A DNA stretch of 42,916 nt, from assembly GCA_024653825.1 (NCBI GenBank), contig JANLHF010000003.1, positions 1-42,916 of the forward strand, in the 5' to 3' direction. Under the pieces are notes generated by a model. It saw only the letters and a program-made list of their open reading frames with translations, ran no database searches and was not told the origin of the DNA. The position numbers were made by a program, and so were the translations under genes. Shown piece after piece: positions 4,751-30,052 of this stretch. The stretch comes from Patescibacteria group bacterium. Lineage in GTDB: Bacteria; Patescibacteriota; Minisyncoccia; Phycocordibacterales; Phycocordibacteraceae. Position 1 is the first letter of the stretch, and the number at the start of each line of letters is the position of its first letter.

Positions 4751-6043
4751 ATGCGCATCGCCGTGTTGCTTACGCTGGTTGTTCTTTTCCCAACATTCGT
4801 GTATGCAGATAGTCCTCCGACTGTCGAGACCGTGATTTTACACGACACCATATATCCGTCTGCAACCGTCGAGTCCGGACTTGCAGCGACCACTTCCATC
4901 GACATTGTTTTTTCTGAGCAAGTAAAAGCATCAATAAAAATACTGTCTGCAGATGGTACGATAATCAGTTCACTTTATTCAAGCTCAAAAGTCACAAATC
5001 CGACACCGAAGATTTGGGATGGGACGGACGATACGGGAGCGTCGGTCGGTAATGGTGTCTACATTGTTCTCATTTCTGCTGTCTCTGTTTCGACGGGACT
5101 GTCGATGACCGATTCGTCTAAAACAATCACTGTTGCACTCCCGCCGAACGACTCAGATCCCGCAGGCATCTCTTCCGACACAACAGACACACCGCCACCC
5201 TCCTCCGGCGGCGGACCCGTGGAATATTTGCCAGTGCCGACACTCCGCATTGTCACCAGTGGCGATCGAACCATCTCTTCTGGCGCGGAGGTTGCCTTTA
5301 CCGCTGTTGTGTACGACGGAAACGGAAATAAGCGCAGTGACGCCGTCGTGACGTGGTCGTTTGGCGACGGAATGCAGAAGACGGGCGCAAGCGTTTTCCA
5401 TGCGTATTACAATTCGGGCGAGTATGTCGCGACCGTGCGTGCCACGACCTCTGACGGCGGTGGAGTACTTGGCGAAAGGGTCGTCACAGTCAAAGACGCA
5501 CGCATCAAAATCACATCCGTCTCTTCGCGCGGCATTGCGCTTACGAACAGCGACTCCCGCACACTAGACCTCTCGTTGTGGCGCCTTTCGATGGGCGGGC
5601 AGGAATTCAAGATTCCCGCGGATACAAAGATTCTCGCCGACCACACCATCCTTTTCCCTTCACAAATAATCGAGTTGCCGATTGCGAACTCGGCATCTCT
5701 CCTTTATCCGAGTGGAGAAACGGCTGCCGTATATCCGAGCGTTGCGGTCGCGCCAACGACAGTCGTGCAACCTACAGCGAACAAAATGAGTTATGAACAA
5801 GTACAGGCGGTTGAGCCACCTGTAACACATACCGTCGAACCGATTATACGCACGGAAAACATTCAAGCACATGAAGAAGCAGTAAGTGCCCCCACAGCGG
5901 CGATTGAAGTCGCGGCTGTGGGGGCGGCATCACTCGAATCGTCGGCGCCCGGCTCTTCTGTCGCGGAAATGTTCAAATCTCCGTGGGCGTTCGGCCTTCT
6001 CGGAGTCATTGTCGTAGCCAGCGGGGCGTTTATTCTTCTCTAA
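4751..6043 (+). CDS. Secreted, C-terminally anchored surface protein (FlgD-Ig-like + PKD + lamin-tail-like domains)
   Basis: Signal peptide; IWDGTDDTGASVGNGVYIVLI (FlgD_ig-like); TWSFGDG..HAYYNSGEYVATV (PKD); LTNSDSRTLDLSLWRL (LTD-like); S/T/P-rich linkers; C-terminal TM. Confidence 0.75.
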   Translation: MRIAVLLTLVVLFPTFVYADSPPTVETVILHDTIYPSATVESGLAATTSIDIVFSEQVKASIKILSADGTIISSLYSSSKVTNPTPKIWDGTDDTGASVGNGVYIVLISAVSVSTGLSMTDSSKTITVALPPNDSDPAGISSDTTDTPPPSSGGGPVEYLPVPTLRIVTSGDRTISSGAEVAFTAVVYDGNGNKRSDAVVTWSFGDGMQKTGASVFHAYYNSGEYVATVRATTSDGGGVLGERVVTVKDARIKITSVSSRGIALTNSDSRTLDLSLWRLSMGGQEFKIPADTKILADHTILFPSQIIELPIANSASLLYPSGETAAVYPSVAVAPTTVVQPTANKMSYEQVQAVEPPVTHTVEPIIRTENIQAHEEAVSAPTAAIEVAAVGAASLESSAPGSSVAEMFKSPWAFGLLGVIVVASGAFILL

Positions 6044-8109: not shown

Positions 8110-9180
8110 ATGCGCCTTGTTATTGCCACTCCTTTGTATCCGCCGGAAATCGGCGGGCCGGCGACGTATGTGCGGTTGCTTGAAGAAGGATTGCCGAAAA
8201 AGGGTATTGAAGTAACGGTGGTGAAATTTAGCGACGTGCGGCACTTGCCGAAATTCATTCGTCATTATGCCTACTATCGTCATGTGCTCGCGGCAGCGTA
8301 CGATGCAGACGTGGTACTCGCACTTGATCCGGTCTCGGTTGGATTCCCAGCGATGAAGGCGGCGCAGAAAGCGGGGAAGCCGTTTGTGGTGAAAATTGTC
8401 GGCGATTACGCGTGGGAGCAGGGGCAACAACGGTTTGGTGTCACGCAGAGTTTAGATGAATTCGTGAAGACGGAGAACGTTTCCTTTTTTGTACGTGTGT
8501 TCAGAAGGATTCAAACGCGCGTGGCGCGAAGCGCTACGCGCGTCATCGTCCCGAGCGAGTACCTGAAAGGCATCGTGGAATCGTGGAGGTCGCCTTCGCA
8601 GGGCTTCGGCGGACCAAGTATTTCACAGAAAAAGATAACGGTTATCTACAACGCCGTTACTCCCGAGGCAATCGGGACAGTGCCGAAAATGGTGCAGGAC
8701 TTGCCACGGCCGCTGGTGGTTTCCGTGGGCCGGCTCGTGCCGTGGAAGGGCTTTGACGGCCTTATACGGGCCGTAGAGGCCATCGGAGCCTCACTGGTAA
8801 TCGTCGGGGACGGCCCCGAACGGGAGGCTCTTGCGAAGTTTCTGGGCAATCATATGGTGCTCACAGGGTCGCTTTCTCATGCCGACACGCTCGCCATGAT
8901 GAAAAGCGCGGACGTGTTTGCACTCAACTCGTCGTACGAAGGATTGTCGCACGTACTAGTGGAAGCCCTCGCGCTCGGTGTGCCAATTGTGGCAACGGAT
9001 GCGGGAGGCAATCGGGAAATCATTGAAGACGGAGTGTCAGGAACACTGGTGCCGGTCGGTGATATGGACGCGCTTGTGCGCGCACTGCAATCTCCGAAAT
9101 TGTCTGCGCATGGTGCCGCGTCTCGCTTCACGAAAGAACGGATGCTTGAGGCGACGACGACTCTTCTCAAAACTATATGA
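8110..9180 (+). CDS. Glycosyltransferase family 4
   Basis: YPPEIGGPATY; GRLVPWKG; SSYEGLSHVLVEALA. Confidence 0.9.
   Translation: MRLVIATPLYPPEIGGPATYVRLLEEGLPKKGIEVTVVKFSDVRHLPKFIRHYAYYRHVLAAAYDADVVLALDPVSVGFPAMKAAQKAGKPFVVKIVGDYAWEQGQQRFGVTQSLDEFVKTENVSFFVRVFRRIQTRVARSATRVIVPSEYLKGIVESWRSPSQGFGGPSISQKKITVIYNAVTPEAIGTVPKMVQDLPRPLVVSVGRLVPWKGFDGLIRAVEAIGASLVIVGDGPEREALAKFLGNHMVLTGSLSHADTLAMMKSADVFALNSSYEGLSHVLVEALALGVPIVATDAGGNREIIEDGVSGTLVPVGDMDALVRALQSPKLSAHGAASRFTKERMLEATTTLLKTI
8588..8615. repeat. Short palindromic element inside the GT4 gene
   Basis: GGTCGCC-TTCGCAGGGCTTC-GGCG(G)ACC; shares the CTTCGC..AGGCTnCG core with 4355-4370; encodes RSPSQGFGG. Confidence 0.6.
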
Positions 9181-10502
9181 AAGTCCTCATGATTAGCGGT
9201 GATCGGTATCTCCTTGAAGCGGGGACGGAAGCGCACGCACGCCTTGTACTGCAAAGAGCACAGGTAGAGCAACTTGATGTCTTCGTCTGGCCACAGGTAC
9301 ATTCGCGAAGTGAGATTATGCGCGCGGCGCGCGCGACCGCGTACGACGTGGTGACCGCACAGGACCCGTTCTGGCGCGGGCTTGTCGCGCGCCGTGCCGC
9401 GCGCGTTGCCGGCGCGAGGCTGAATCTGCAGGTGCACACTGATCTCTCGGCGCAACCGTTGTTTCGTCGGCTTCTCGCACGTTTCCTCTTGCGCCGCGCC
9501 GACTCAGTGCGCGTCGTGTCGGAGCGCGTACGCGCACAGGTGCAGGCGCTCGGTGTTACGGCTCCGATACACGTACTGCCGGTATATGTTGACGTGAGCC
9601 GGTTTGAAAAGGTAGTGCGCGAACCGCATACACAGAAAACGATATTGTGGGTAGGACGATTTGAAAAAGAAAAGGACCCGCTTCGCGCCGTGTCGGTGTT
9701 GAAAGAAGTTCGCACAACGGGCGTTGATGCTAAGCTCGTGATGCTTGGTTCAGGAATGTTGGAATCAGAGTTACGACAACAGTCGGCGGGATTGTCGGTA
9801 GAATTTCCCGGGTGGCAAGACACGGTGCGGTATCTGCCGACGGCTGACCTTGTGCTGTGCACATCACTTCACGAGAGTTGGGGAGCGAGTATCGTAGAGG
9901 CGCTCGCGGCGGGTGTGCCGGTGGTTGCACCTGATGTCGGCATCGCCAAAGAGGCGGGAGCCACCATCGCTTCGCGCGCTGAGCTTACGGGTAAGGTCAT
10001 TGAAACGCTACGCGCTGGTCAGCGAGGAGAACTCAAACTTTTCATACCAAGCGCGGAAGAATGGGCGGAACGTTGGCTGGGAACGCTCATAAACAATAAG
10101 GAAGAACCTGTCTTAAATGCACTGCGCGTACGTATTCCGAGGCCGGTACGGTACATCGTTTCTGGTGGTACCGCCGCTGTCGTTAATATAGGAATACTTT
10201 TTGTTTTGACGCATTTTGCGGGGATTTGGTATCTTGCCTCGTCGGTAATCGCTTTCCTTGTCGCCTTTTTTGTCAGTTTTATCCTTCAGCGGACGTGGAC
10301 ATTTGACCAACGGACGACCGACGGGCTCGCGCGCCACACGTCGCTGTATTTCATCGTCACGACGGTCAACACGTTTGTGAATACGGCGCTTGTGTTCAGT
10401 TTTGTGGAATACGCACACATCTGGTATATCGCAGCGCAGGTTATTGCTGGGGCACTCATCGCGTTCGCTAGCTTTTTCATATATCGGAAAATCTTCGTAT
10501 GA
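9177..10502 (+). CDS. GT4 glycosyltransferase fused to a C-terminal GtrA-like (4-TM) domain
   Basis: GRFEKEKD, SLHESWGASIVEALAAG; then RYIVSGGTAAVVNIGILFVL...FILQRTWTF...SFFIYRKIF, typical of GtrA. Confidence 0.85.
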   Translation: MKVLMISGDRYLLEAGTEAHARLVLQRAQVEQLDVFVWPQVHSRSEIMRAARATAYDVVTAQDPFWRGLVARRAARVAGARLNLQVHTDLSAQPLFRRLLARFLLRRADSVRVVSERVRAQVQALGVTAPIHVLPVYVDVSRFEKVVREPHTQKTILWVGRFEKEKDPLRAVSVLKEVRTTGVDAKLVMLGSGMLESELRQQSAGLSVEFPGWQDTVRYLPTADLVLCTSLHESWGASIVEALAAGVPVVAPDVGIAKEAGATIASRAELTGKVIETLRAGQRGELKLFIPSAEEWAERWLGTLINNKEEPVLNALRVRIPRPVRYIVSGGTAAVVNIGILFVLTHFAGIWYLASSVIAFLVAFFVSFILQRTWTFDQRTTDGLARHTSLYFIVTTVNTFVNTALVFSFVEYAHIWYIAAQVIAGALIAFASFFIYRKIFV

Positions 10503-16074: not shown

Positions 16075-17604
16075 ATGGAACCCAAAGTACTTCTTGTGTA
16101 TCCGCCGAATCAACTGATGCCGGTGGAATTGCCCCGGCCAGACGGTTCGCTCGGGCCACTATATCTTGCAGGGGCTCTTGAACGGGCCGGGATTGAGGTA
16201 GATGTTCTCGATGCCTCTGTAGGCACGCCGGACGACAGTCTCGAAACGACCTTCAACAATCGTGTCCTGCAATCAAATGGACTGATCCGCATCGGTATGA
16301 CGGCAGAACGGATAAGCGAAGTCATTTCCAACGGCGGCTATAATGTCGTCGGGGTTAACTCCAACTTCACTCCGCAGACGAAAATGGCTCTTGAAGTTGC
16401 CCGTTTGGCCAAGGGCGTCTCAGAGGACATTCTGGTTGTGGCGGGTGGCGTCAATGCTCGTGCCCTGCCGGGGAGGTTTCTTGCCGGTGGTGTGGACGTC
16501 GTTTGTGCTACCGAAGGGGAGCGAATCATCGTTGAGCTTGCCCGAAGATTGGAAGAGGGGAGAAATCTCGAAGTTTCCGGAACAATCACCACAAAGAGGG
16601 GAATAGTCGTAAGACACCCACTCCGCGCCGGCGATACGGTGACCAATCTTGATGAACTACCTTTCCCTACATGGCAGAAACTCCCGTTCGAACAGTATGA
16701 CGGCATCGCATCGGCCGGACGGGATTCGCTCAAACAAAACGAACGGTCGGCTTCTCTCATGACCTCACGCGGATGTCCCTTCAGGTGCGCCTACTGCCAT
16801 ATCTCTATGGAAAAACAGAATGAAAAAGAGAGTGGCGGCATTGGAGCACTGAGGACCAAGTCTGTCAGTCGCGTGATGGAAGAAGTGAAATGCCTCAAGG
16901 CGCTGGGCGTCAAGAAGATCTACTTTGAGGACGACAGCTTGCTCGCGCACAAGTCCCGAGTGAAGGAGATTTTCACTAAGGTGACGGGTATGGGTATGAA
17001 GATTGCTGACGTCAACGGAGTCAATCTCACGCATTTCCTGAAAGGTGGACCGGGAGGGAAACCGATGATTGACGTGGAGTATCTCGAACTGCTTGCTTCA
17101 GCCGGATTTGATCAAATTGTCTTTCCGGTGGAATCGGCATCCCAACGCATTCTCAACAAGTATGCGACCGGGAAACTCAACCATGCCAAACTTGATGTTG
17201 TGGAGCTGGTAAAGTTGGCGGTGCGGATAGGAATCACCTGCCCCGTTAACATGATGATTGGCTTCCCCGATGAAACAGAGGAAGAAATTCTTTCATCGAT
17301 TGAGCTTGGTCGTCGGCTGGTTGATGCGGGCGCGCCTTACTGCTCGCTCTACGTCCCTATTCCATTCCCGGGAAGCCAGCTTCACGAGATTGCCTTGCAT
17401 GACGGATACCTTGCGTCGAATTTCGACACGGACGCCTTCAACTGGCGAAAACCAACCATGCGAGATACGACCGTCTCTCCGGAAAGGATTGAAGAACTAC
17501 AGCAATGGGGCTGGAGAGATATCAATCCGAAGGAGTACGTCCGTAAGAGACTCGAGATGGACATCGGCAGGCGGTGGAAGAGCGGCGAGCCGGAAGTTGC
17601 CTGA
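16075..17604 (+). CDS. Cobalamin-binding radical SAM enzyme (class B methylase-like)
   Basis: N-terminal B12-binding-type domain (SLGPLYLAGAL..VDVLDA, VAGGVNA); TSRGCPFRCAYC (CxxxCxxC); YFEDD, ESASQRIL, MIGFPDET, PFPGSQL. Confidence 0.9.
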   Translation: MEPKVLLVYPPNQLMPVELPRPDGSLGPLYLAGALERAGIEVDVLDASVGTPDDSLETTFNNRVLQSNGLIRIGMTAERISEVISNGGYNVVGVNSNFTPQTKMALEVARLAKGVSEDILVVAGGVNARALPGRFLAGGVDVVCATEGERIIVELARRLEEGRNLEVSGTITTKRGIVVRHPLRAGDTVTNLDELPFPTWQKLPFEQYDGIASAGRDSLKQNERSASLMTSRGCPFRCAYCHISMEKQNEKESGGIGALRTKSVSRVMEEVKCLKALGVKKIYFEDDSLLAHKSRVKEIFTKVTGMGMKIADVNGVNLTHFLKGGPGGKPMIDVEYLELLASAGFDQIVFPVESASQRILNKYATGKLNHAKLDVVELVKLAVRIGITCPVNMMIGFPDETEEEILSSIELGRRLVDAGAPYCSLYVPIPFPGSQLHEIALHDGYLASNFDTDAFNWRKPTMRDTTVSPERIEELQQWGWRDINPKEYVRKRLEMDIGRRWKSGEPEVA

Positions 17605-17649: not shown

Positions 17650-17685
17650 CTCTTTCTTGTTTTATAATTGTTAACATCGGCCATT

Positions 17686-18843
17686 ATGAAGGTCATCCAC
17701 AGAGTCGGCAGAATAGTGCTTCTTGTACAATGCATAGTGAGAGCGATTTTCTATGGTGCAGCAAATCGCATTCCTTCTAAGATATCTCGAGTCGTAGTCC
17801 ACCCGGACGGTAAATTGGGTGATGTTGTTTGCTGTACGCCGGTACTTGTCGCACTCAGAGCCAATTTACCAGAGGCGCATCTTATCGTAGCGGGAAACTC
17901 CAAACTGCATCGCCCGCTTTTGTCCGACAGCGGCTTAGTCGACGAATATATAGACCTCGGAGAAAAGGGGGCCTTATCACACATTAAGGCCTGCAAGGCC
18001 GACGTAGCCCTCGTGACGGGGGTATCGTTTGATGCCGCGGCATTGTTTTATGTGGCTGGAATTCCCTTGGTAGTAGCCCCAGTTGTTGTGGGGGGTGAAT
18101 CCGAGCAAGAGACGCGTCTGTATAAAATCTTGCAGAGATTTATTAAAACATTTCCGTATAGAATAGGCGCGTATGCTCCCCGCGAACGTTTACGTGTGCT
18201 TGAGCCGCTCAACATTTTTTTTGACGACACGAAGAAACGTCTTGGTTTTTCCGAAGATGCTAAAAGGAACGTTGAGAATGTACTCAATAAAATCGTCGGC
18301 TCTTATACGTATCTTGTCGGCATATCAGCCGGAGTCGGCAACAAAGAAAAATTATGGGATCCAGAAAAGTTTGCCGCAGTGGCGAATTACTTTATACAGA
18401 AGCGTGGGGCCCATATTGTCGTCTTGGGAGGGAAAAGTGATGCACCAGAATCTGCAAAAATGATAGCGGCCATTGAAGACAAATCGAAAATATCTGATGC
18501 CACACTGACATCGATAGACGACCTAAAGGCTATGATAGCGAAACTCGACGTATTTGTGGGTGTGAATACGGGCCCCATATACATCGCTGAAGCATTTGAT
18601 GTTCCGACGGTTGACCTTATCGGTCCGGTTAATCCGTGGGACCAACCGCCACAAGGGAAGATCCATAAAATGGTATTCCCTCCGGGAGAGCCGAAACCCC
18701 TCCTTAATATGCTGAATACACGAAACCATGACGTGAAAGAGGCTGAGCGTATAGCACACTCTACGCGACTTGAAGACGTTATAATGGCAGTAGAAGAAGC
18801 GCTTAAAGAGGTTGATGCACTGAGGTTGGCTAGGAAAAAATAA
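17686..18843 (+). CDS. Glycosyltransferase family 9 (heptosyltransferase-like)
   Basis: KLGDVVCCTPVLVALRANLPEA; KLWDPEKF; FVGVNTGPIYIAEAFDVPTVDLIGP; TATAAT at 17663-68. Confidence 0.85.
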   Translation: MKVIHRVGRIVLLVQCIVRAIFYGAANRIPSKISRVVVHPDGKLGDVVCCTPVLVALRANLPEAHLIVAGNSKLHRPLLSDSGLVDEYIDLGEKGALSHIKACKADVALVTGVSFDAAALFYVAGIPLVVAPVVVGGESEQETRLYKILQRFIKTFPYRIGAYAPRERLRVLEPLNIFFDDTKKRLGFSEDAKRNVENVLNKIVGSYTYLVGISAGVGNKEKLWDPEKFAAVANYFIQKRGAHIVVLGGKSDAPESAKMIAAIEDKSKISDATLTSIDDLKAMIAKLDVFVGVNTGPIYIAEAFDVPTVDLIGPVNPWDQPPQGKIHKMVFPPGEPKPLLNMLNTRNHDVKEAERIAHSTRLEDVIMAVEEALKEVDALRLARKK

Positions 18844-19588
18844 ACTTTTCTATTACATGCGCTACGCCGTCTTTATCTACTGATGGTGCGATATAGTGTG
18901 CCACCGCTTTCAGTTTGTCGTCGGCGTTTTCCATAGCGACTTTAAGACCGCAGGCATTGAGAAACGGCATATCGTTTCTTGAGTCCCCGATGCCTATCAT
19001 TTCCGATGCCTGGACCTTCAGCATTTTGGCAAGTTCTTGTGTGGCGTATTGCTTGGTGGCTTCTGCCTGCGTCACATACACTTCCATTTTGTAGTTTCTG
19101 TCTTTGTCCCAAGAGAAAAATTTATGTGCAGAAACGCCGGGCATATGTTCGAATGTTCGAAGACACTCGTCGGACTCCTCTTTCGAATTAAAATAGGACA
19201 TTTGTACCGCAAGCGGTTTCTCAAATTTCAACACAGAAGGATTTTTATACTCAATACCTCCGTCGTTCACAATGAAAGGAGTTTTGTAATATTTGATTAT
19301 TTTCATCAAACTATCCATATCTCCTCCAGCAATCGGTTTCTCCCAAAGGATATCTCCTGATTGTGGATCGACTATCTGCGAGCCTCCGTTTATGATGCAA
19401 GGGCTTGTCAGCTCCAATGTTTTGAAGGTCTCGGTAAGCCAATTTAGTGGCCGGCCAGAGACAATAGATACGAAGACTTCTTTTTTCGCTTTTTTTATCG
19501 AGTCCGTTACTTTTTCGGACGGAACGGTGTAAGGCCCGACAGGGACGATGGTCCCATCGACGTCTAAAAGGAGGGATTTATATTTCAT
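18830..19588 (-). CDS. Cof-type HAD-IIB sugar-phosphate phosphatase
   Basis: LDVDGT, VSGRP, IINGGS, IGDSRND, VAMENA; likely start ATG 19588. Confidence 0.9.
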   Translation of the reverse strand: MKYKSLLLDVDGTIVPVGPYTVPSEKVTDSIKKAKKEVFVSIVSGRPLNWLTETFKTLELTSPCIINGGSQIVDPQSGDILWEKPIAGGDMDSLMKIIKYYKTPFIVNDGGIEYKNPSVLKFEKPLAVQMSYFNSKEESDECLRTFEHMPGVSAHKFFSWDKDRNYKMEVYVTQAEATKQYATQELAKMLKVQASEMIGIGDSRNDMPFLNACGLKVAMENADDKLKAVAHYIAPSVDKDGVAHVIEKFIFS

Positions 19589-19611
19589 AGGCACTGTTGT
19601 AGTATACATTC

Positions 19612-20577
19612 ATGAAGTCGTCCGTGGCCATGTCTTTTAAGCGGAAAAGGGTTCTGCTAGTTGGGGATGCAATACTTGATATGTATATCTACTGTAATGC
19701 CGTTGGTCAAGCGTTGTACGCGGACGTACCCGAGGTTGAAGAAATAAAAACCAAGGTTTCCTTTGGTGGCAACGGTTTGGTGGCGACAAACATTTTGGAG
19801 CTTGGGGGGAATCTCACGTTTGTTTCTGTGGTCGGAGACGATGAAGACGCAAGACAGTACGATTCCTTCGTCCATCCGAGAATGAAGAAGATTTTCTTTG
19901 TAGATCCTACGCGTAAAACGACGGTCAAGAGAAGGTGGTATGTAGGCGAGAAAGCATTGCTTCAGGTAAACACCGTCGATAACCACAGCCTCAGTGTCCT
20001 GCTTGAAAAAAAGCTGATAGGCCGTATCGAGAAAGAAGCAAGAAAAGCCGATGTGATTGTTGTGATGGATCCACAGCACGGGCTACTGACCAAGAGTGTC
20101 ATCAATCGGTTAAAAAAAATAAGCAGGGAACTCAAGAAGCCGTTGTACGTTGATGGACAGATATCGCACAGAAAAAGCAATCACTATCTCTATCGAGGTG
20201 TTGACTGCATCCTTTTGAACGAAAAAGAGGCGAGGGCCGTCTACCCCGCATTTGATATAAAAACCCCTCAACAAACACTCCTCACTATATTGAAAAAACT
20301 GGAATTAAAGAACGTTGTTGTAAAGCTCGGAGATAAAGGGTCTATAGCGCTCTGCAACGGTCGTTACATAAAGACCTCCCCGTATAAAGTAAAGGCAGTG
20401 GATACCTGCGGGGCCGGTGACGCTTTCCTCGCAGCCTTCAGTCTTGGAGATATGAATACGCCTGAAGAATCTCTCGCGATAGCCAATATGTGGGGAGCGC
20501 TTTCCACGAAAATTCATGGTACTATTCCGCCCGGAAGGAAAGAATTGGTTAGAATCATAAAGGAGAATACACGATGA
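19612..20577 (+). CDS. PfkB-family kinase, RfaE domain I (heptose-7-phosphate kinase)-like, diverged
   Basis: LLVGDAILDMY, TTVKRRW..LLQVN, LNEKEA, VKLGDKG, DTCGAGDAF. Confidence 0.8.
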   Translation: MKSSVAMSFKRKRVLLVGDAILDMYIYCNAVGQALYADVPEVEEIKTKVSFGGNGLVATNILELGGNLTFVSVVGDDEDARQYDSFVHPRMKKIFFVDPTRKTTVKRRWYVGEKALLQVNTVDNHSLSVLLEKKLIGRIEKEARKADVIVVMDPQHGLLTKSVINRLKKISRELKKPLYVDGQISHRKSNHYLYRGVDCILLNEKEARAVYPAFDIKTPQQTLLTILKKLELKNVVVKLGDKGSIALCNGRYIKTSPYKVKAVDTCGAGDAFLAAFSLGDMNTPEESLAIANMWGALSTKIHGTIPPGRKELVRIIKENTR

Positions 20578-21290
20578 GCTCTCAGTTACATATCAAGTTG
20601 TTTGCAGACGGCGCGGACCTTGCCGGCATCAAGGAAATGGCAGCGAACCCTCTTGTAAAGGGTTTTACCACCAACCCGACGCTGATGCGTAAGGCAGGCG
20701 TGACGGATTACAAAACGTTCGCGCAAGAGGCACTCAGTGTCATTGGCGATCGGCCACTATCGCTCGAGGTATTTGCTGACGAGTTCGCCGAGATGGAAAA
20801 ACAAGCCCTCGAAATCGCTTCGTGGGGCAAGAACGTGAATGTCAAAATCCCGGTGACGAACACGAGGGGCGAGTTTTCCGGGCCACTCGTGGAGCGTCTG
20901 TCGAAGGCAGGAGTTCAGGTCAATGTAACGGCGTTGATGACGCTTGAGCAGGTTTCATCCGTAACGGATAAGCTTGCCCCCGAAACACCGGCGATTATTT
21001 CGGTATTCGCCGGTCGCATTGCCGATACGGGACGCGACCCGGTGCCGATGATGGCCGAGGCGGTTCGCGTCATGAAGACGAAGCCGAAGGCGGAACTGAT
21101 CTGGGCGAGTCCACGGGAATTACTCAACGTGTTTCAAGCGGACTCGGTCGGGTGTCATATCATCACGGCGACGAACGACATTCTCAAGAAGATGGCGCTA
21201 GTTGGCAAAGATCTAGACGCCTATTCGCTCGAGACGGTCAAGATGTTCTACGACGATGCGCAAGCCGCGGGCTACAACGTCTCAACCTAA
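20574..21290 (+). CDS. tal: Transaldolase (short TalC-type)
   Basis: LFADGAD, GFTTNPTL, SLEV, VKIP (Schiff-base Lys), NVTA, SVFAGRIAD; Glu and Phe at the TAL/FSA-discriminating positions. Confidence 0.9.
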   Translation: MSSQLHIKLFADGADLAGIKEMAANPLVKGFTTNPTLMRKAGVTDYKTFAQEALSVIGDRPLSLEVFADEFAEMEKQALEIASWGKNVNVKIPVTNTRGEFSGPLVERLSKAGVQVNVTALMTLEQVSSVTDKLAPETPAIISVFAGRIADTGRDPVPMMAEAVRVMKTKPKAELIWASPRELLNVFQADSVGCHIITATNDILKKMALVGKDLDAYSLETVKMFYDDAQAAGYNVST

Positions 21291-21310
21291 GAACGAAGAA
21301 CGGGCCGTCA

Positions 21311-21340
21311 AAAAGCCGCCAGCATCTGCTGGTGGCTTTT
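21311..21340. terminator. Bidirectional intrinsic terminator
   Basis: AAAAGCCGCCAGCA-TC-TGCTGGTGGCTTTT. Confidence 0.8.
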
Positions 21341-21377
21341 GTTGTGAGTTTTAGAACAACCTTGTACCATATCCAAT

Positions 21378-21863
21378 ATGAATACTCGCGCAAAACTCGT
21401 TTCTTTGGCCGAACTCCCCGCGATAGTCGAGAAACTAAAAAAACAAGGCAAAAAAATTGTCACGACCAATGGAGCTTTTGACATTTTGCATGTTGGCCAC
21501 AAGAGGGCGCTTGAAGAGAGTAAGTCGCTCGGGGATGTTCTCATTGTTGGCGTAAACTCAGATTCATCTGTTAAACAATATAAATCAGACTTACGGCCGA
21601 TCATTCCTGAGGACGATCGGGCTGAGGTGCTCGCCGGACTTGCTTGTGTTGATTTCGTGACCATTTTTACCGAAACTGACCCAAAGAATTTTCTAGATCT
21701 GGTAAAACCTGACATTCACACTAAGTCCGGAGATTATAAGGAGGAAGAGCTTAAAGAAACATCAACCGTTCTACAAAACGGCGGAGAGGTGGTGATTATT
21801 CCCTTCATAGAGGGTAAATCAACGACGAATATTATCGATCGAATCCTTAAGGTTTACGGATAG
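21378..21863 (+). CDS. rfaE2: RfaE domain II / HldC-like heptose-1-phosphate nucleotidyltransferase
   Basis: TNGAFDILHVGH (HxGH), VGVNSDSSV, RPII..DRAEVL, VDFVTIF, KSGDY, STTNII. Confidence 0.88.
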   Translation: MNTRAKLVSLAELPAIVEKLKKQGKKIVTTNGAFDILHVGHKRALEESKSLGDVLIVGVNSDSSVKQYKSDLRPIIPEDDRAEVLAGLACVDFVTIFTETDPKNFLDLVKPDIHTKSGDYKEEELKETSTVLQNGGEVVIIPFIEGKSTTNIIDRILKVYG

Positions 21864-23013
21864 GCTCGACAGTATAAATGAAAAGGGGAGTAGTGCCGGT
21901 ATTTTTCACCTTCACCTCTGTGTGAGGGATAACCAGAAACTCGTTCATCCCGTCTTGGGCGATCTTGTTCCCATTAATATCTCCTTCTCCGCTCCAGACG
22001 ATTCCGCCCTGGGGTTCTTTTTTTGGAGCCAGCGTAAGGGTCTTGCCGGGGAATATTTTCCACTCCTCTCCATAGAACATATCGAAGAATATCTGGTGGC
22101 GCTCCCCCCAGTCTCCTGAATCAATACGTTTGGGCGTATGGAAGTATTTTTTCGCGAGTTCCGGATCGCTTGTTGTTTCCCAATCCAACACCTTTTCGAT
22201 AAAATCATCCTCGCTTGGAAGTCCGCGGAGTACGTGTTCTTCGTATTTCTTTTCTCGTTCTTTTTCGGAAAGTCGTTCTCCTAGTCGCCACGAACCGTTA
22301 TTGTAATCGTCTTGTGGCAACTGGACCTCAAACGTAAGGTAGGGGCCGGGAGCATGAAGCACTCCCTCTGGAACGGTCCAACCAGTGTTGGGCAATATCG
22401 GAAATTCGTTCAGAAGCTCGTACATCGAGTCGTCTTTCCCAAATGAGTGAAGCCTTTGTTTTATATCCTCTTTTGTAACACCCTCCTTAAGACCGATTCT
22501 CGTTATTACTGACAACTTTTTATTGTAAGGAGGGATATCAGTAGGCGGAAAAAAATATGCCTCTGATTTCCCCGGTTTATTGACCGAACCGTGTACAATA
22601 TTTCCCCCGTGTACATGAACCGGTATCGGCGGGATTTCCGTAGTACCAAAACTGGTGGCAACCTCTTTCCCGCCGATGTCGAGAATCTTGGTGAGAGGCC
22701 AGCGTGCGGCATACTCTCCAAACAGAAGCGATTCGGCAACGTGTCTCAAATCGGCCAGTGGGACTTCCTCTTCAAAAATTTTTATCTTTGTGAGTCCCTC
22801 CCCAGTTACTCGGACGGCGTTTTCTGCTTCTACCGTTGATAGTATCCAAAGTTCTACAGGCACGTACCCGCGCGAATCGGCTTTGTTAGGGGAGCTATTT
22901 GGCGCGATGATGTCATTTCCGAAATAAGATTCACGACAGACAATCGCACTTTTTGTTACAAGCACTCCATTTTTTTCATCCAACCCTTTTTTTATTTTTT
23001 CGACCGAGGACAT
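21847..23013 (-). CDS. Divergent type I phosphomannose-isomerase-like cupin (start ~23013)
   Basis: PIPVHVH, GKSEAYFF, GVLHAPG, TFEVQLPQD correspond to PMI-I metal-binding segments (QVHP, KPE, VHA, EIQQxSD); track N-terminal extension overlaps the opposite gene. Confidence 0.65.
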   Translation of the reverse strand: MSSVEKIKKGLDEKNGVLVTKSAIVCRESYFGNDIIAPNSSPNKADSRGYVPVELWILSTVEAENAVRVTGEGLTKIKIFEEEVPLADLRHVAESLLFGEYAARWPLTKILDIGGKEVATSFGTTEIPPIPVHVHGGNIVHGSVNKPGKSEAYFFPPTDIPPYNKKLSVITRIGLKEGVTKEDIKQRLHSFGKDDSMYELLNEFPILPNTGWTVPEGVLHAPGPYLTFEVQLPQDDYNNGSWRLGERLSEKEREKKYEEHVLRGLPSEDDFIEKVLDWETTSDPELAKKYFHTPKRIDSGDWGERHQIFFDMFYGEEWKIFPGKTLTLAPKKEPQGGIVWSGEGDINGNKIAQDGMNEFLVIPHTEVKVKNTGTTPLFIYTVEPIRKP

Positions 23014-23040
23014 GAGTTTTGATGGTATCATACAAAAAAT

Positions 23041-23901
23041 ATGTTGGTATCTCCATGCCCTTCCTGCGGCAAAACAGAGAACAAAGAATGGGGCAGCAAG
23101 AATGGCTATACGCTGCTTCGATGCACTTCCTGTGGTCTCATTTTCGTCTTTCCACTGCCGAGCGAAGCGCCGGCTATCTATGATAAGACCTATTTTGCCA
23201 GCGGTGACGGGTATGGTTATGTGGATTATGATCGCGACAAGGAACCGATGCGCCGTGCATTTGAACTGTATCTGGAGCACATAGAAGAGGTGCTTGGGAG
23301 GAAAGGGAACCTTCTTGATGTCGGTGCAGCCACTGGGTACTTCATGAACATAGCAAAGGGACACGGTTGGAAAGTGGAAGGAGTCGAGATATCAGACTAC
23401 GCTGCGTCGCTCGGTCGGGCGAAGGGATTGTCTATACACACGGGTACTCTCGAAAATACCTTTCTTACAGAAGAGAGTTTCGATGCAATAACCTTCTTTG
23501 ACATACTAGAACACGTAAGAGACCCCAAGTCGGTTTTGCTAGAAGCGAATCGATTTTTAAAGAAGGGGGGCATCGTTGTCGTGACGACTCCCGATAGTGG
23601 CAGTCTATGGGCTCGAGTGCTCGGGCAACAGTGGCATCTCGTGGTGCCGCCAGAGCACCTGATTCTATTCAATCGGAAGAATTTTGCAGACTTACTTAGA
23701 CGCACAGGTTTCACTCCGTCTCTTGTCACGACCATAGGCAAGCATTTCACTGTGCCGTACATATTTCAGACACTTTATCACTGGCAGGGTCTTTCCTTGT
23801 GGAATATACTAGCCAAAGCGACAAACAGAGGAATTTTATCAAAACTGAAAATACCGATTAATCTTCACGACACTTTTTTTATGATAGCTAAGAAGTCATG
23901 A
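23041..23901 (+). CDS. Class I SAM methyltransferase with N-terminal Zn-ribbon
   Basis: CPSC...CTSC; LLDVGAATG; FDAITFFDILEHVRDP; PPEHLILF. Confidence 0.9.
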   Translation: MLVSPCPSCGKTENKEWGSKNGYTLLRCTSCGLIFVFPLPSEAPAIYDKTYFASGDGYGYVDYDRDKEPMRRAFELYLEHIEEVLGRKGNLLDVGAATGYFMNIAKGHGWKVEGVEISDYAASLGRAKGLSIHTGTLENTFLTEESFDAITFFDILEHVRDPKSVLLEANRFLKKGGIVVVTTPDSGSLWARVLGQQWHLVVPPEHLILFNRKNFADLLRRTGFTPSLVTTIGKHFTVPYIFQTLYHWQGLSLWNILAKATNRGILSKLKIPINLHDTFFMIAKKS

Positions 23902-25541
23902 AAAAGCTTTTTGTACTCATAGCATTGGCGGCGACGCTCGCTCCAGCAACTTTCGTCATACACGAGGCTGGCGGATGGCAACAATGGAAGGGCGTTCTCC
24001 CTCCGGGAACTACTGACAGTCGGTATTATTATGGACGCATCCATGAAGTCACAGACGGGCATCTTTTCGTCGGTAATCCATATGCGTACGAATATCGCAA
24101 CGCTCTTCCGCCGGCGCAATTTCTACCCGACGTAGTCTCAGCGATTCCTATGTTTTTCGGAATACCATTTGATAGCGCGGTTTTGGTCAATGTGTTCGTG
24201 TGGAGTTTCGTATTCTTGTTGCTCTCTTTCGTTCTTTTCCGTCTTTTGCAAATGCCGAAATGGTGGGCAGTTGTATGGTCCGTTCTTACCTATGTGTGTG
24301 CATACGCTTTTATGCTTCGGCCGACGGTGATGCAGATCGTGTATCCGGTGTTTTTGCTGTTTCTCATTGCGCTTCTGAAATTTTTGTATGAACCATTTGT
24401 CCGGCGTAAGGCACTCTGGCTCGCGTTCACCGCGGCCCTCACTTTCTACGCCTATACGTATCTCGCCTACATTGTCTTTATCGTTTTTGCCTTTCTATTC
24501 CTCGGGTACGCGGGCACTCGCCGTTTCAAAGAATTGCGCGCGCTCATTTCAGCCGGCGTATACACCGCTCTTCTGCTCATCCCTTTTGGAGTCCTTACAC
24601 TCCTGCAGATGGGAGATCCAAATTACCTTGAAACCTTTAACCGCATTGGTCTCCTCTACACACACATCCCTTCTATCGAAGCGTTTTATTATGGTCGATG
24701 GGTCGTGATAGGAGGGGCTATCTTTGGTCTTTTGTGGTTTTTCTTTCCTAAAAGAGAAGAAGGCAACCCAACACAAAACGTTTTCTGGCTAGCGACCGGG
24801 GCAGGTCTTTTGGGCGGTTTATTGTTGAATGTTATTACCGGTGTTGAGTTAACGCTCGGGGTTCATATTGGACGTTTCGTCTTCGTATGGATGCCGCTCC
24901 TTCTGGGGGCTGGTTTGTACGAATGGTATTCTGCGAAACCTTCCACTATTGGCGTCAACGCTGTGAGCGCCAAATATGCGCTCGTGGCCGTTCTTCTCAT
25001 TCTGCTCTCAGTCGGGGTGCTTGCGAACATTCCTCGCGGACTCGGATTTTTCAATTCAAATAATCGAGAAGACACTATCGCCAGTCTTCAGCCGTATGCC
25101 ACGCCGCTCGCGTGGCTCGAGGCGCATGCACCTGAGCAGTCCGTAATCTGGGCCAATGACTCAATCTCTCAATATGTACCGATTATGACTCGGCATTACC
25201 CGCTATTCGCTCCTCAGACGATGCTCCACAACATGCCCTCTAAGGAGCTGGAAGATCGTTACTTGCTCTCGCGCAGTATGGCCACACTAACGATTGACGA
25301 CCTTAAGCGTGATTTCGCTCTTTACTCCGGCACCCTTCCGATCGCCTCTCGTGGAGAAGAGTATTTCAGACTACTACTTCAACGGTTTGAAGAGATGAGG
25401 AAAAATCAAGCCGTTTCCCTCCAAAAATTCAACGTGAAATACCTCACCATTGATCGCATGCATGACGATATAGGAAACATCTCTCTAAAAAAAGCCGTGT
25501 ATGACGATGGGCGATTTACAATTCTACCGGTGCCTTTTTGA
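23898..25541 (+). CDS. Polytopic membrane protein, putative GT-C-type glycosyltransferase
   Basis: About 11-12 TM segments, first loop DSRYYYGRIHEVTDGH, soluble C-terminal domain WLEAHAPEQSVIWAND..FNVKYL; paralog of 28313-30052. Confidence 0.6.
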   Translation: MKKLFVLIALAATLAPATFVIHEAGGWQQWKGVLPPGTTDSRYYYGRIHEVTDGHLFVGNPYAYEYRNALPPAQFLPDVVSAIPMFFGIPFDSAVLVNVFVWSFVFLLLSFVLFRLLQMPKWWAVVWSVLTYVCAYAFMLRPTVMQIVYPVFLLFLIALLKFLYEPFVRRKALWLAFTAALTFYAYTYLAYIVFIVFAFLFLGYAGTRRFKELRALISAGVYTALLLIPFGVLTLLQMGDPNYLETFNRIGLLYTHIPSIEAFYYGRWVVIGGAIFGLLWFFFPKREEGNPTQNVFWLATGAGLLGGLLLNVITGVELTLGVHIGRFVFVWMPLLLGAGLYEWYSAKPSTIGVNAVSAKYALVAVLLILLSVGVLANIPRGLGFFNSNNREDTIASLQPYATPLAWLEAHAPEQSVIWANDSISQYVPIMTRHYPLFAPQTMLHNMPSKELEDRYLLSRSMATLTIDDLKRDFALYSGTLPIASRGEEYFRLLLQRFEEMRKNQAVSLQKFNVKYLTIDRMHDDIGNISLKKAVYDDGRFTILPVPF

Positions 25542-26276
25542 CCTGAAGGATGAAAAGAATGGCGAGAAGCGCCACGGCACGATGAGCCCTTCATAAATGA
25601 TGTGATTAGAGATTTTTGATTGCCCCTCTATACGCGGTCCGAAAATAATAGGTACTTCTTTTATTTTTGCGCCTAATTGATGGGCAACAATCTTCATCTC
25701 CATCTGGTAGCCATAGCCGGCAGCTTTGAGGGAATCAAAGTCGTATCGTTTTAACAGGCTGGCGCGATAACAGACAAACCCGGCCGTGAGATCGTGGATG
25801 GCACTTATTGTCACGAGCCGTGCATACAGGTTGCCGCCAAGAGACAGTAGGCGACGCGAAAGTTCCCAATTTTTTACTCCGCCCCCCTGTATATAGCGCG
25901 AACCGATTACTAAGTCATACTGTTCCACTTCCTTCAGCATCGTGCCAATCACCACAGGGTTGTGCGAGAGGTCGGCATCCATGGTGATGATATTTTGGAC
26001 AGTAGGGTGTTCGTTCAGGACATCTTTGAATGCGCCGAGGTAGGCACTTGCGAGGCCAAGCTTGCTCGGGCGCTGCTTTAAATGGAGATTGGAATAGGTT
26101 CGTTGGAGCTTCTGCACGACTGCGGCAGTGCCATCCGGCGAGCCATCATCTATGACCAATATGTGGATGGCTGGGTAGAGAGAAAAGATTTTTTCAACAA
26201 GCACGCGAATATTATTGTGCTCATTATAGGTGGGGATTAGTACAAAATTAGTCACGGAATCTTTTTTGTCTTTCAA
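25524..26276 (-). CDS. Polyprenol-monophosphomannose synthase-like GT2 (DPM1-like)
   Basis: IPTYNE, IDDGSPDGT, KLGLASAY, MDADLSH, IGSRY, GYGYQME, GQSK; start uncertain (TTG 26276 or GTG 26255). Confidence 0.9.
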   Translation of the reverse strand: MKDKKDSVTNFVLIPTYNEHNNIRVLVEKIFSLYPAIHILVIDDGSPDGTAAVVQKLQRTYSNLHLKQRPSKLGLASAYLGAFKDVLNEHPTVQNIITMDADLSHNPVVIGTMLKEVEQYDLVIGSRYIQGGGVKNWELSRRLLSLGGNLYARLVTISAIHDLTAGFVCYRASLLKRYDFDSLKAAGYGYQMEMKIVAHQLGAKIKEVPIIFGPRIEGQSKISNHIIYEGLIVPWRFSPFFSSFRSKRHR

Positions 26277-28312: not shown

Positions 28313-30052
28313 ATGCATGTCCCTAAGATAGTGACAAACCATAAATGGGCGATTGTTCTCGCAGTGTTTGTTGCTCTTATCGTTTCTGCTCCGCAGGTCG
28401 CTTTTCGTATTCAGCACGCACACGACGGCATCTATCAGGGTATAGAACTCCTGCCGGACAATTCGTGGCCGCCGCGCGTACGCGAAATAATGGATGGACA
28501 CGGGTTTGGGAGCATCTATTTCAAAGAGGGGAAGAGTGATCCGTATCTTTTCCAGCCACTCGGTTCTATGACCGTGGCATATATGGGAGAAGCGTTCGGT
28601 CTCAATATCAACGATACTCTTCTGTTTGCGAGGTTCGTTCTCTCCTTCGTTGTTTTTCTTCTCATCTACAGCTTTGTTTTCCTGTTGTCTAGAAGCAGAC
28701 TTGTGGCACTCTCTGGTGCCTCAGTATTTTTGTTCGCGGATTCGATAACGAATCTCTCCGGTCTTAAAAGTTTACTTGCTGGTGTGAGCCCCTCTAATTT
28801 CTTAAATATCGATTTGCCAGTCAATCCGGCGATGATATACATCCCCCCTTTCTTATTTTTAGTGTCTTTTTGGTTGTTCTATAAAAAGGGGGGTTATAAA
28901 TGGGGAATAGCGAGTGCGATATTTCTCGGTTTAAACTTCTACGCGTACTTTTATTCGTGGACATACCTCTATGCTTTCGGGGGTATTTTAGTTTTGTTAT
29001 ATCTCGTGCAGAAAAAATGGTCAGAAGCAGTCCGTATAGGAAGTGTATTTCTCGGTGCTTTAGTGATGGCCATCCCTTATGGAATCAATCTATATCGCGC
29101 TTCTCAATATTCGACATTTGCAGACGTCGGCATGCGACAGGGCATACTCTTCACTCATGCTCCTTTGTTTGTTGGAATTGTCGTTGTTGTCGCGCTGCTG
29201 ATTTTCCTAGGAGGATTCCCTCGGGAGGATAGAGAAAGGTACCTGTTCGGACTCGCCCTGCTTCTAGCGCCCTTCATCACGATGAACCAGCAAATTTTGA
29301 CAGGCAAGATTATGCAGGAGGCTCACTATCATTGGTACTTCCACAAGCCGATGGCTGTTCTGTTTGTTATTATTATTGTTTTTTATCTTCTCAGTCGTCT
29401 CAAAACAGGTTGGTATAAGCAGACTGTCGCTATAGTGATGATAGTGTCGAGTTTCGCTCTAGGGATTTTTATACAAGTCAATTCTTTCACGAGTAATCGT
29501 GGCGATGCTGGCGCGATTGCTATCGAGCGGCAGAAATACGGGCCGGTTATGGATTGGCTCAACCAGAACGCCACCAAAGAAGATGTCGTCCTCTCAAATG
29601 ACCCCATATCGTATCTGGTAACTATCTATACTTCTCTAAATATCTATTATTGCCGTGCTGATCTTTATTCGCTTTCTGCGACCAATGAACGTTTGCGCGA
29701 TATTCTCTTCACGCTCTATCGGCTACGGGGTGTCGGTAAGGAAGAGGTACAGAAAGTATTTTATGCGGAACGCAAGTTCATTTCGCTCAATCTCTACGGC
29801 ATCTATTATCGCCAACTTTCTGGCTCATATGAGGCTATTCCCGATGAAGAACTCAATCGGACCATTGCGCTCTACGAGGAGACACTCGCTACGCCAACCG
29901 AAGAGTGGTTGAAGCAGAAGATGACACAGTACGAAGTGAATTATGTCATCTGGGATAAAAAATCCGATCCTGACTGGCAACTGCAAAAGTATCCGTTCCT
30001 GCATGAAGCCGCCGTTTTCGGCGATATCGTTATTTATCAATTTCAGAAATGA
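28313..30052 (+). CDS. Polytopic membrane protein, putative GT-C-type glycosyltransferase
   Basis: Multiple TMs, first loop PPRVREIMDGH, C-terminal WLNQNATKEDVVLSND..YEVNYVIWDK; paralog of 23898-25541. Confidence 0.6.
   Translation: MHVPKIVTNHKWAIVLAVFVALIVSAPQVAFRIQHAHDGIYQGIELLPDNSWPPRVREIMDGHGFGSIYFKEGKSDPYLFQPLGSMTVAYMGEAFGLNINDTLLFARFVLSFVVFLLIYSFVFLLSRSRLVALSGASVFLFADSITNLSGLKSLLAGVSPSNFLNIDLPVNPAMIYIPPFLFLVSFWLFYKKGGYKWGIASAIFLGLNFYAYFYSWTYLYAFGGILVLLYLVQKKWSEAVRIGSVFLGALVMAIPYGINLYRASQYSTFADVGMRQGILFTHAPLFVGIVVVVALLIFLGGFPREDRERYLFGLALLLAPFITMNQQILTGKIMQEAHYHWYFHKPMAVLFVIIIVFYLLSRLKTGWYKQTVAIVMIVSSFALGIFIQVNSFTSNRGDAGAIAIERQKYGPVMDWLNQNATKEDVVLSNDPISYLVTIYTSLNIYYCRADLYSLSATNERLRDILFTLYRLRGVGKEEVQKVFYAERKFISLNLYGIYYRQLSGSYEAIPDEELNRTIALYEETLATPTEEWLKQKMTQYEVNYVIWDKKSDPDWQLQKYPFLHEAAVFGDIVIYQFQK

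Follow-up and report, generated by a model that had tools for sequence, protein, structure and literature searches.

In the canonical route to nucleoside diphosphate (NDP)-heptoses, which relies on GmhA, HldE and GmhB, an isomerase of the SIS fold (GmhA), a C1 kinase of the PfkB/HldA type, a 7-phosphatase of the HAD-IIIA family (GmhB) and a nucleotidyltransferase (NTase) of the RfaE-II/HldC type act together, with a GT9-family glycosyltransferase downstream. The octose branch of lincomycin biosynthesis runs in a similar order, from a transaldolase (LmbR) through a higher-sugar phosphate to an NDP-sugar, and involves a GmhA-like isomerase (LmbN), a GHMP-type kinase (LmbP), a phosphatase (LmbK) and an HddC-type guanylyltransferase (LmbO). 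In septacidin biosynthesis the isomerase, kinase and nucleotidyltransferase are joined in the tridomain protein SepB, whose isomerase domain is GmhA-type and N-terminal. NDP-heptose enzymes are also known outside lipopolysaccharide (LPS) producers (Tang et al. 2024, via PMC11461863) and, as far as commentaries on that work convey, homology to the four canonical kinds of enzyme served to identify the producers, while eukaryotes and viruses yielded no phosphatase. Pathway calling has also pointed before to heptose synthesis in Paceibacteria (PMC9166423). The locus considered here lies on contig JANLHF010000003.1 of a Patescibacteria group bacterium, a stretch of 42.9 kb (42,916 nucleotides, hereafter the window) that carries a module of heptose-type enzymes together with a cupin of 388 aa. 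We consider it likely that this module constitutes a complete NDP-beta-D-manno-heptose pathway, with unrelated proteins standing in for two of the four canonical enzymes.

The preliminary description of this DNA had reported six contiguous genes, the lack of a GmhA-type SIS protein and of a HAD-IIIA GmhB in the window, and a lineage thought to lack lipid A, and our data agree on each point, the lineage being Patescibacteria/Paceibacteria. The open reading frame (ORF) listing and profile searches recovered all six genes, intact and side by side, preceded by a radical-SAM gene:

16075-17604, + strand: B12-binding radical-SAM enzyme (PF04055 and PF02310)
17668-18843, + strand: GT9-family glycosyltransferase (PF01075, 60.2 bits, cut-off 22)
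18830-19609, - strand: Cof-type HAD-IIB phosphatase (PF08282, 128 bits)
19612-20577, + strand: PfkB kinase, HldA-like (PF00294, 95.8 bits; best NCBIfam model rfaE_dom_I)
20574-21290, + strand: short-form transaldolase (TIGR02134, 351 bits, cut-off 282)
21378-21863, + strand: cytidylyltransferase-like NTase, RfaE domain II/HldC (TIGR02199, 184.2 bits, cut-off 181.5)
21847-23013, - strand: 388-aa bicupin resembling phosphomannose isomerase (PMI) by fold, with no sequence match in Pfam, NCBIfam or PDB

The GT9 ORF opens at 17668, its first ATG being at 17686, and an alternative start of the cupin ORF at 23031 would give a protein of 394 aa. Proteins of Paceibacterota, Kaiserbacteria, Minisyncoccota or Patescibacteria share 70-76% identity with the MurC encoded at 327-1658, in agreement with the assigned lineage. 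A phmmer --max search with GmhA and GmhB of E. coli and a GmhA of the candidate phyla radiation (CPR) found no relative of either protein in any of the six reading frames; in the window, the sole SIS protein is of the KpsF/GutQ type and the Cof-type IIB protein is the sole HAD protein. The locus would share with the canonical pathway the four steps, a putative kinase homologous to PfkB/HldA, an RfaE-II/HldC NTase and a downstream GT9, whereas its isomerase would be a PMI-like bicupin instead of SIS-fold GmhA and its phosphatase a Cof-type HAD-IIB protein (DUF89 elsewhere) instead of HAD-IIIA GmhB. It further differs by a dedicated transaldolase, by a host devoid of LPS and by the lack of a convincing HldD, since the window's two genes for SDR epimerases/dehydratases score 61 and 65 bits against TIGR02197, whose cut-off is 274.6. 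What is new would be a non-orthologous displacement of two steps in a known pathway, not a new kind of system.

Related modules bear on the role of the cupin. Further CPR contigs were gathered through Cof homologues and through a kinase-based metagenome scan, and they contain the same radical-SAM, GT9, Cof, kinase, transaldolase and NTase genes with about 57-85% identity to those of the window. Since the module recurs in this way on about 15 other long CPR contigs (57-85% amino acid identity), its arrangement is not due to chance. In many of these loci (L086-L091, L093, L096-L100, L103, L106 and L108) the NTase gene is followed by a convergent gene for a SIS_2 protein of 184-187 aa, whose best models are all phosphoheptose isomerases (156-171 bits) and which is 32-34% identical to E. 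coli GmhA. In these SIS_2-bearing modules the other six genes keep the order seen in the window, with 59-85% identity. The same convergent slot is filled by the cupin in the window and in L003, L092 and L102, and a cupin without SIS_2 is found in a slightly different local arrangement in L001, L002 and L094. Among the CPR modules covering the slot, no locus with both or with neither of the two genes was encountered. The cleanest pair is L089/L092, in which the gene order is the same and the kinases are 90%, the radical-SAM proteins 85%, the GT9 proteins 85% and the transaldolases 84% identical; L089 encodes a SIS_2 protein of 185 aa where L092 encodes a cupin of 384 aa, itself 66% identical to that of the window. 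Both types of isomerase are constantly accompanied by the Cof gene in the CPR module. Taken together, this exchange, the fold, the fusions described below and the constancy of Cof support the earlier proposal that a PMI-like cupin stands in for GmhA and a Cof protein for GmhB, and the cupin is probably a sedoheptulose-7-phosphate (S7P) isomerase analogous to GmhA, as predicted from its fold, its displacement of SIS_2 and its fusions.

The cupin has no usable sequence match in Pfam, NCBIfam or PDB. An AlphaFold (AF2) model built from 50 homologues reached a pLDDT of 95.8 and a pTM of 0.92, and in a Foldseek comparison with PDB the best 17 matches were all type I PMI (E 2e-15 to 5e-11), generic bicupins coming next. 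These matches include the enzymes of A. fulgidus (1zx5, E 2e-15, target-normalised TM score 0.75), B. subtilis (1qwr), Salmonella (3h1m and mutants) and Candida (1pmi), with 10-17% identity in the fold alignments. At the level of profiles, the cupin family reaches the PMI-like 1zx5 at E 2e-4, its HAPGP being aligned to HAGEG. Residues K109, H135, K149, E151, H220 and E229 are invariant in the homologues compared and H133 is kept in at least 90% of them. The order K109/H133-x-H135/K149-x-E151/H220/E229/R243 parallels that of K86/Q97-x-H99/K132-x-E134/H255/E264/R274 in ManA, which are the positions mutated in the Salmonella structures among the Foldseek matches. A putative metal site formed by H133, H135, E151 and H220 would correspond to Q97, H99, E134 and H255 of ManA, as read from the order of the motifs and the fold. 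Compared with type I PMI, the cupin has the same bicupin fold (TM up to 0.75, target-normalised), a similar order of putative metal and catalytic residues and, as proposed for the cupin, the same class of reaction, from a ketose phosphate to a manno-configured aldose phosphate. In contrast, it has no Pfam PMI match, its first ligand would be His where PMI has Gln, its genomic partners are enzymes of heptose and not of mannose metabolism, and its proposed substrate is one carbon longer.

A homologue search returned more than 200 relatives of the cupin, all unnamed and devoid of Pfam domains, in Parcubacteria, DPANN archaea, several bacterial phyla and some eukaryotes, several of them fused to a cytidylyltransferase domain. 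A search of viral contigs gave no relative of the cupin. A profile search of 1.84 billion cluster representatives (50% identity) yielded 699 clusters at E <= 1e-3, among which 96 at E <= 1e-30. The eukaryotic stand-alone orthologues (43-48% identity) belong to three sponges, Pelomyxa and several protist transcriptomes (P0057/L085 of Sycon ciliatum, OZ025896.1; P0082; P0117; P0115; EukProt entries P0051, P0058, P0068, P0073 and P0087). The Sycon gene is 12 kb long, which indicates introns and not contamination; its neighbours are uninformative.

Outside the CPR module, a scan of GTDB species genomes gave 80 loci, of which L001-L029 contain orthologues (41-61% identity) and L030-L080 distant paralogues (25-30%). 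An HldE-like kinase and/or NTase lies within a few kb of the cupin gene in 20 of the 29 orthologous loci, and a DUF89/ARMT1-like phosphatase (PF01937) adjoins it or is fused to it in 17 of them. GmhB occurs in none of the 29, and a weak GmhA-like SIS gene is seen only in L017, 7 kb from the cupin (51 bits on TIGR00441, cut-off 209). The phosphatase partner outside the CPR module is DUF89 and not Cof, these so-called damage-control phosphatases holding the proposed phosphatase role in the archaeal and non-CPR versions and having no member in the window. HldE, DUF89 and the cupin form a recurrent triad in DPANN, other archaea and several bacterial phyla, and in Woesearchaeota, Aenigmatarchaeota and a metagenome-assembled genome labelled Methanosarcinales, GT9 genes (as judged by Pfam) lie next to it. 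The cupin is also found in the following fused proteins:

PfkB-NTase-cupin: L011, L013 and P0121 (Woesearchaeota)
DUF89-NTase-cupin: L008, L014 and P0122
DUF89-cupin: P0123
NTase-cupin: P0046 and L012
cupin-NTase: P0040 and L016
cupin-PfkB: P0127
phosphoribulokinase-like kinase-cupin: P0139 (681 aa), an N-terminal PF00485 domain replacing PfkB

The cupin has been fused independently to the kinase, the NTase and the phosphatase, and the isomerase is the one activity of the pathway that still lacks a protein. The PfkB-NTase-cupin proteins of Woesearchaeota recall SepB in uniting isomerase, kinase and nucleotidyltransferase, with the difference that their cupin isomerase domain is C-terminal. The phosphoribulokinase/uridine-kinase-family domain of P0139 may represent a further variant of the kinase step. 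Two NTase domains per locus are present in the archaeal loci L006 (11170-12669 and 13568-14071) and L008 (6985-8415 and 8387-11149); the one inside the HldE-like protein has no HxGH motif (FIHAGI and LLNEGK) and in L008 its C-terminal STT motif is gone too, while the separate or cupin-fused domain retains both motifs. Judging from these motifs, the HldE-like protein of L006 and L008 is probably only a kinase.

The putative assignments of the kinase and the NTase of the window are supported by homology. The kinase contains the motifs DTCGAGD and NEKE and its top PDB sequence match is HldA of B. cenocepacia (4e84, E 9e-13). It scores 152 bits on rfaE_dom_I against a cut-off of 345, and the kinase of the sister modules bearing GmhA behaves alike (153.6 bits). 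The NTase, whose top PDB sequence match is 5x9q (E 5.6e-30), contains ILHVGH (HxGH) and FIEGKSTTNII, the E. coli counterpart of the latter being FEDGCSTTNII, and is proposed to be a heptose-1-phosphate nucleotidyltransferase (HldC/RfaE domain II). The pattern (F/L)xxGxSTT is given as a heptose-NTase motif in the commentary cited above (PMC11461863), and at position 5 of this motif the window enzyme has Lys, whereas promiscuous enzymes have Arg and the E. coli enzyme Cys. The Cof protein contains the catalytic motifs DVDGT and GDSRND and scores 117.5 bits on TIGR00099, below the cut-off of 137. Its orthologues (57-66% identity) adjoin the kinase in the CPR module loci of both the cupin and the GmhA type, with the exception of L002, where a HAD-IA protein takes its place, and no fusion of a Cof homologue was seen in the homologue search. 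This constant co-location suggests that Cof acts as the heptose-1,7-bisphosphate 7-phosphatase, in analogy to GmhB. The Cof and kinase genes diverge with their starts 2 nt apart (19609/19612), and 27 nt separate the cupin gene from the divergent methyltransferase gene that comes next (23013/23041); such small gaps imply promoters located inside coding sequence, or true starts at internal Met residues (M8 of Cof and M7 of the kinase).

The transaldolase, a member of the short staph-type subfamily (TIGR02134), is nearer to the PDB transaldolases 1vpx and 3s0c than to fructose-6-phosphate (F6P) aldolases, whose entries rank lower. It is the most conserved protein of the module over most CPR loci (74-85% identity; 48% in L001 and 30% in L002), and it is a constant member of the CPR version. 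Cupin loci of archaea and other bacteria mostly have no transaldolase, the one case with a copy within 10 kb being L017. It would either supply S7P or, in the manner of LmbR, start a C8 sugar, and its absence from the archaeal and other bacterial versions favours the supply of S7P. The GT9 protein has 3tov (GT9) and 1psw (WaaF) as its closest PDB sequences, and on the RfaQ, RfaC and RfaF equivalog models it reaches 22-67 bits for cut-offs of 135-569, so that it does not qualify as an orthologue of the LPS-core enzymes WaaC, WaaF or WaaQ. A GT9 orthologue is found in L003, L086-L093 and L094-L108. This GT9 is the presumed user of the NDP-heptose, on an acceptor other than LPS.

The following pathway can be proposed from these assignments: (i) the transaldolase would convert F6P and erythrose 4-phosphate into S7P; (ii) the bicupin, through its putative His/His/Glu/His metal site, would isomerize S7P to the 7-phosphate of D-glycero-D-manno-heptose, as GmhA does; (iii) the PfkB kinase would phosphorylate C1, given its homology to HldA; (iv) the Cof-type HAD-IIB protein would take off the 7-phosphate, the reaction of GmhB, as its constant co-location suggests; (v) the RfaE-II/HldC-type transferase would, by homology, produce the NDP-heptose; and (vi) the GT9 would move the heptose to a non-LPS surface acceptor, assembled through the GT4, GT2, membrane-protein, methyltransferase and radical-SAM genes nearby. 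At the scale of the family, the evidence leans slightly towards the cupin being a second, evolutionarily independent S7P isomerase which, together with DUF89 or Cof, defines an alternative route to NDP-heptose shared by CPR, archaea (DPANN and others) and several phyla of bacteria. Sponges, Pelomyxa and other protists, which likewise encode the cupin, possibly use the same route.

Several observations weigh against this pathway. The sequence likeness of the cupin to PMI is marginal, the equivalence of the ligands relying on motif order and fold, and its profile compared with E. coli ManA is not significant in hhalign or hmmsearch; isomerase activity is a prediction from sequence and model for the whole family. 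The kinase lies far below the HldE equivalog cut-off, the search for GmhA and GmhB covered the 42.9-kb contig and their genes could lie elsewhere in the genome, the glycan cluster also holds, at a distance of 17 kb, a SIS isomerase of the KpsF/GutQ type, and C7 and C8 sugars are not separable by sequence. In addition, a cupin subclade with identical active-site residues, monophyletic in the neighbour-joining trees and comprising Carboxydochorda subterranea (L084), Limnochordales (L015), Bacillota (L018) and probably L019, occurs in a sugar-catabolic context without HldE, its neighbours in L084, L015 and L018 being LacI, FGGY kinases, a fucose-isomerase-like gene, a DeoC-type aldolase and an ABC transporter. 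These points leave room for other explanations. In an octose pathway following the lincomycin logic, the transaldolase would join a C3 unit to a pentose 5-phosphate, either ribose 5-phosphate or arabinose 5-phosphate from the KpsF-like isomerase, to give octulose 8-phosphate and then an NDP-octose. The transaldolase, an enzyme that would not be needed were S7P drawn from central metabolism, is constant and highly conserved in the CPR module, the glycan cluster encodes a pentose-phosphate isomerase of the KpsF/GutQ family, and the LmbR/LmbN pair provides a precedent, which reportedly goes back to Sasaki et al. in 2012 and Lin et al. in 2014. However, most archaeal and other bacterial loci combining cupin, HldE and DUF89 have no transaldolase nearby (L017 excepted), so that the substrate of the cupin there must be a common metabolite, and a search of related loci (L001-L080) gave no homologue of KpsF. 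The sister CPR modules moreover carry a protein matching only phosphoheptose isomerases among its best matches, the transferase is of the GT9 family, and the kinase and NTase are of the HldA and HldC types and not of the GHMP and HddC types of lincomycin octose, a distinction (PfkB kinase and cytidylyltransferase-like NTase in the window) that is drawn at the level of enzyme family rather than of the Lmb sequences. The octose pathway is consequently regarded as unlikely. The KpsF/GutQ-family SIS+CBS protein itself (40264-41229), a SIS-domain sugar-phosphate isomerase of the same cluster, could be imagined as the S7P isomerase, but it passes the KpsF/GutQ subfamily cut-off with negligible similarity to GmhA (E 0.02-0.2) and lies 17 kb off, beside a carbamoyltransferase and a flippase; with no homologue in those same related loci, this role appears extremely improbable.

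The cupin could also be an isomerase of phosphomannose or of another hexose phosphate, the module then leading to a beta-linked NDP-hexose such as NDP-beta-mannose via mannose 1,6-bisphosphate. Its nearest folds are all isomerases of F6P and mannose 6-phosphate, the conversions of S7P to manno-heptose 7-phosphate and of F6P to mannose 6-phosphate are the same chemistry on homologous substrates, and the divergence of the kinase does not allow it to be called an equivalog. We nevertheless hold this to be distinctly improbable, considering that the cupin exchanges in situ with a GmhA-type protein and not with PMI or phosphoglucose isomerase, that the NTase passes the equivalog cut-off of heptose-1-phosphate adenylyltransferases and bears the (F/L)xxGxSTT motif, that the glycosyltransferase is a GT9, and that a transaldolase in the module fits S7P and not F6P. 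Finally, the cupin could act outside the pathway, in salvage, catabolism or modification of heptose, with canonical gmhA and gmhB located elsewhere in the genome, of which the window is a single contig. The family has other roles, as its catabolic surroundings in Carboxydochorda, L015 and L018 show, and L017 has its weak GmhA-like gene 7 kb from the cupin. Against it stand the strict exclusion between cupin and SIS_2 in one slot with both flanks conserved, the several independent fusions to kinase, NTase or phosphatase, and the grouping of the window cupin, in simple neighbour-joining trees drawn without support values, inside the CPR module clade and apart from the catabolic clade. We judge this explanation very improbable, and an NDP-heptose pathway with the cupin as its S7P isomerase accounts best for the data.

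If this NDP-heptose pathway is correct, a function would be attributed to an unannotated, Pfam-less family of about 700 clusters at 50% identity in all three domains of life, and the first step would be filled in many HldE-containing archaeal and CPR clusters that look incomplete to homology-based pathway callers. The exchange of cupin and SIS_2 would then be an unusually clean case of non-orthologous gene displacement in situ. Heptose-1,7-bisphosphate would be a physiological substrate of DUF89, which, on the family-wide reading, would gain its first dedicated biosynthetic role, and we know of no earlier proposal of a biosynthetic role for DUF89 in heptose synthesis. The literature searched describes neither a cupin-type S7P isomerase nor a part played by DUF89 in heptose synthesis, although the supplement of Tang et al. 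2024 might mention the family. The number of predicted NDP-heptose makers would also increase; NDP-heptoses being innate-immune agonists sensed by ALPK1, surveys of agonist producers based on homology to GmhA and GmhB would, on the family-wide reading, have missed a whole class of them. Heptose-containing surface glycans made through GT9 would, in addition, be a feature of envelopes devoid of LPS.

The cupin family can be described as sugar-phosphate isomerases with at least one catabolic branch, and the idea of a purely biosynthetic family was rejected, given the catabolic context in Carboxydochorda and Limnochordales; that this branch runs the same reaction in reverse is speculation. The L084 locus belongs to a cultivated organism (CP141615.1, 3186412-3207653), and its cluster comprises four FGGY kinases and a Fucose_iso_C protein, with a HAD, a DJ-1/PfpI and a glycerol-3-phosphate dehydrogenase gene also present. 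The distant paralogues L030-L080, found mainly in Planctomycetota, Victivallales, Chloroflexota, Acidobacteriota and Spirochaetota (e.g., L031, 10001-11245; L061, 9992-11197 and 13673-14875), have no HldE neighbours, no DUF89 or GmhB nearby and no Pfam match, and they were not used as evidence. They retain the metal-site residues, R172 is replaced by Phe or Tyr, and LacI or FGGY neighbours are sometimes present; they are probably isomerases for a different sugar.

The best NCBIfam match of the radical-SAM protein is far under its cut-off, and this protein is not close to any curated family. Its orthologues (63-76% identity) lie beside GT9 in L003, L086-L092, L095-L098, L102, L103, L106 and L108, and methylation of the heptose or glycan is a possible role for it. 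Weaker relatives are located near the archaeal modules L012 and L014. A large surface-glycan cluster, with many GT4 and GT2 genes, methyltransferases, a carbamoyltransferase, a flippase and three large Pfam-less membrane proteins, makes up the remainder of the window. Genes outside the module include:

2951-4741, + strand: TrwB/TraG-like type IV coupling-protein ATPase
4751-6043, + strand: PKD-domain protein
23898-25541, 28313-30052 and 36672-38435, + strand: three membrane proteins of 547-587 aa with no Pfam or NCBIfam match
38448-40229, - strand: NodU-like carbamoyltransferase, on one side of the KpsF gene
40264-41229, + strand: KpsF/GutQ-family SIS+CBS isomerase (259 bits, cut-off 203.7), not of the GmhA type
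41226-42485, - strand: Wzx-type flippase, on the other side of the KpsF gene

No gene for the synthesis of 3-deoxy-D-manno-octulosonic acid (Kdo) was found in the window, despite the KpsF/GutQ isomerase with its arabinose-5-phosphate-type product. The coupling ATPase and the PKD protein are situated between housekeeping genes (murC and an rsmI-like gene) and the glycan cluster. The three membrane proteins look like undescribed GT-C-type transferases or polymerases. They adjoin a GT2 resembling polyprenyl-phosphate-sugar synthases (25524-26276, - strand) and a GtrA domain (part of 9177-10502), and for two of the three the Saccharibacteria locus L003 has conserved counterparts (509-620 bits).

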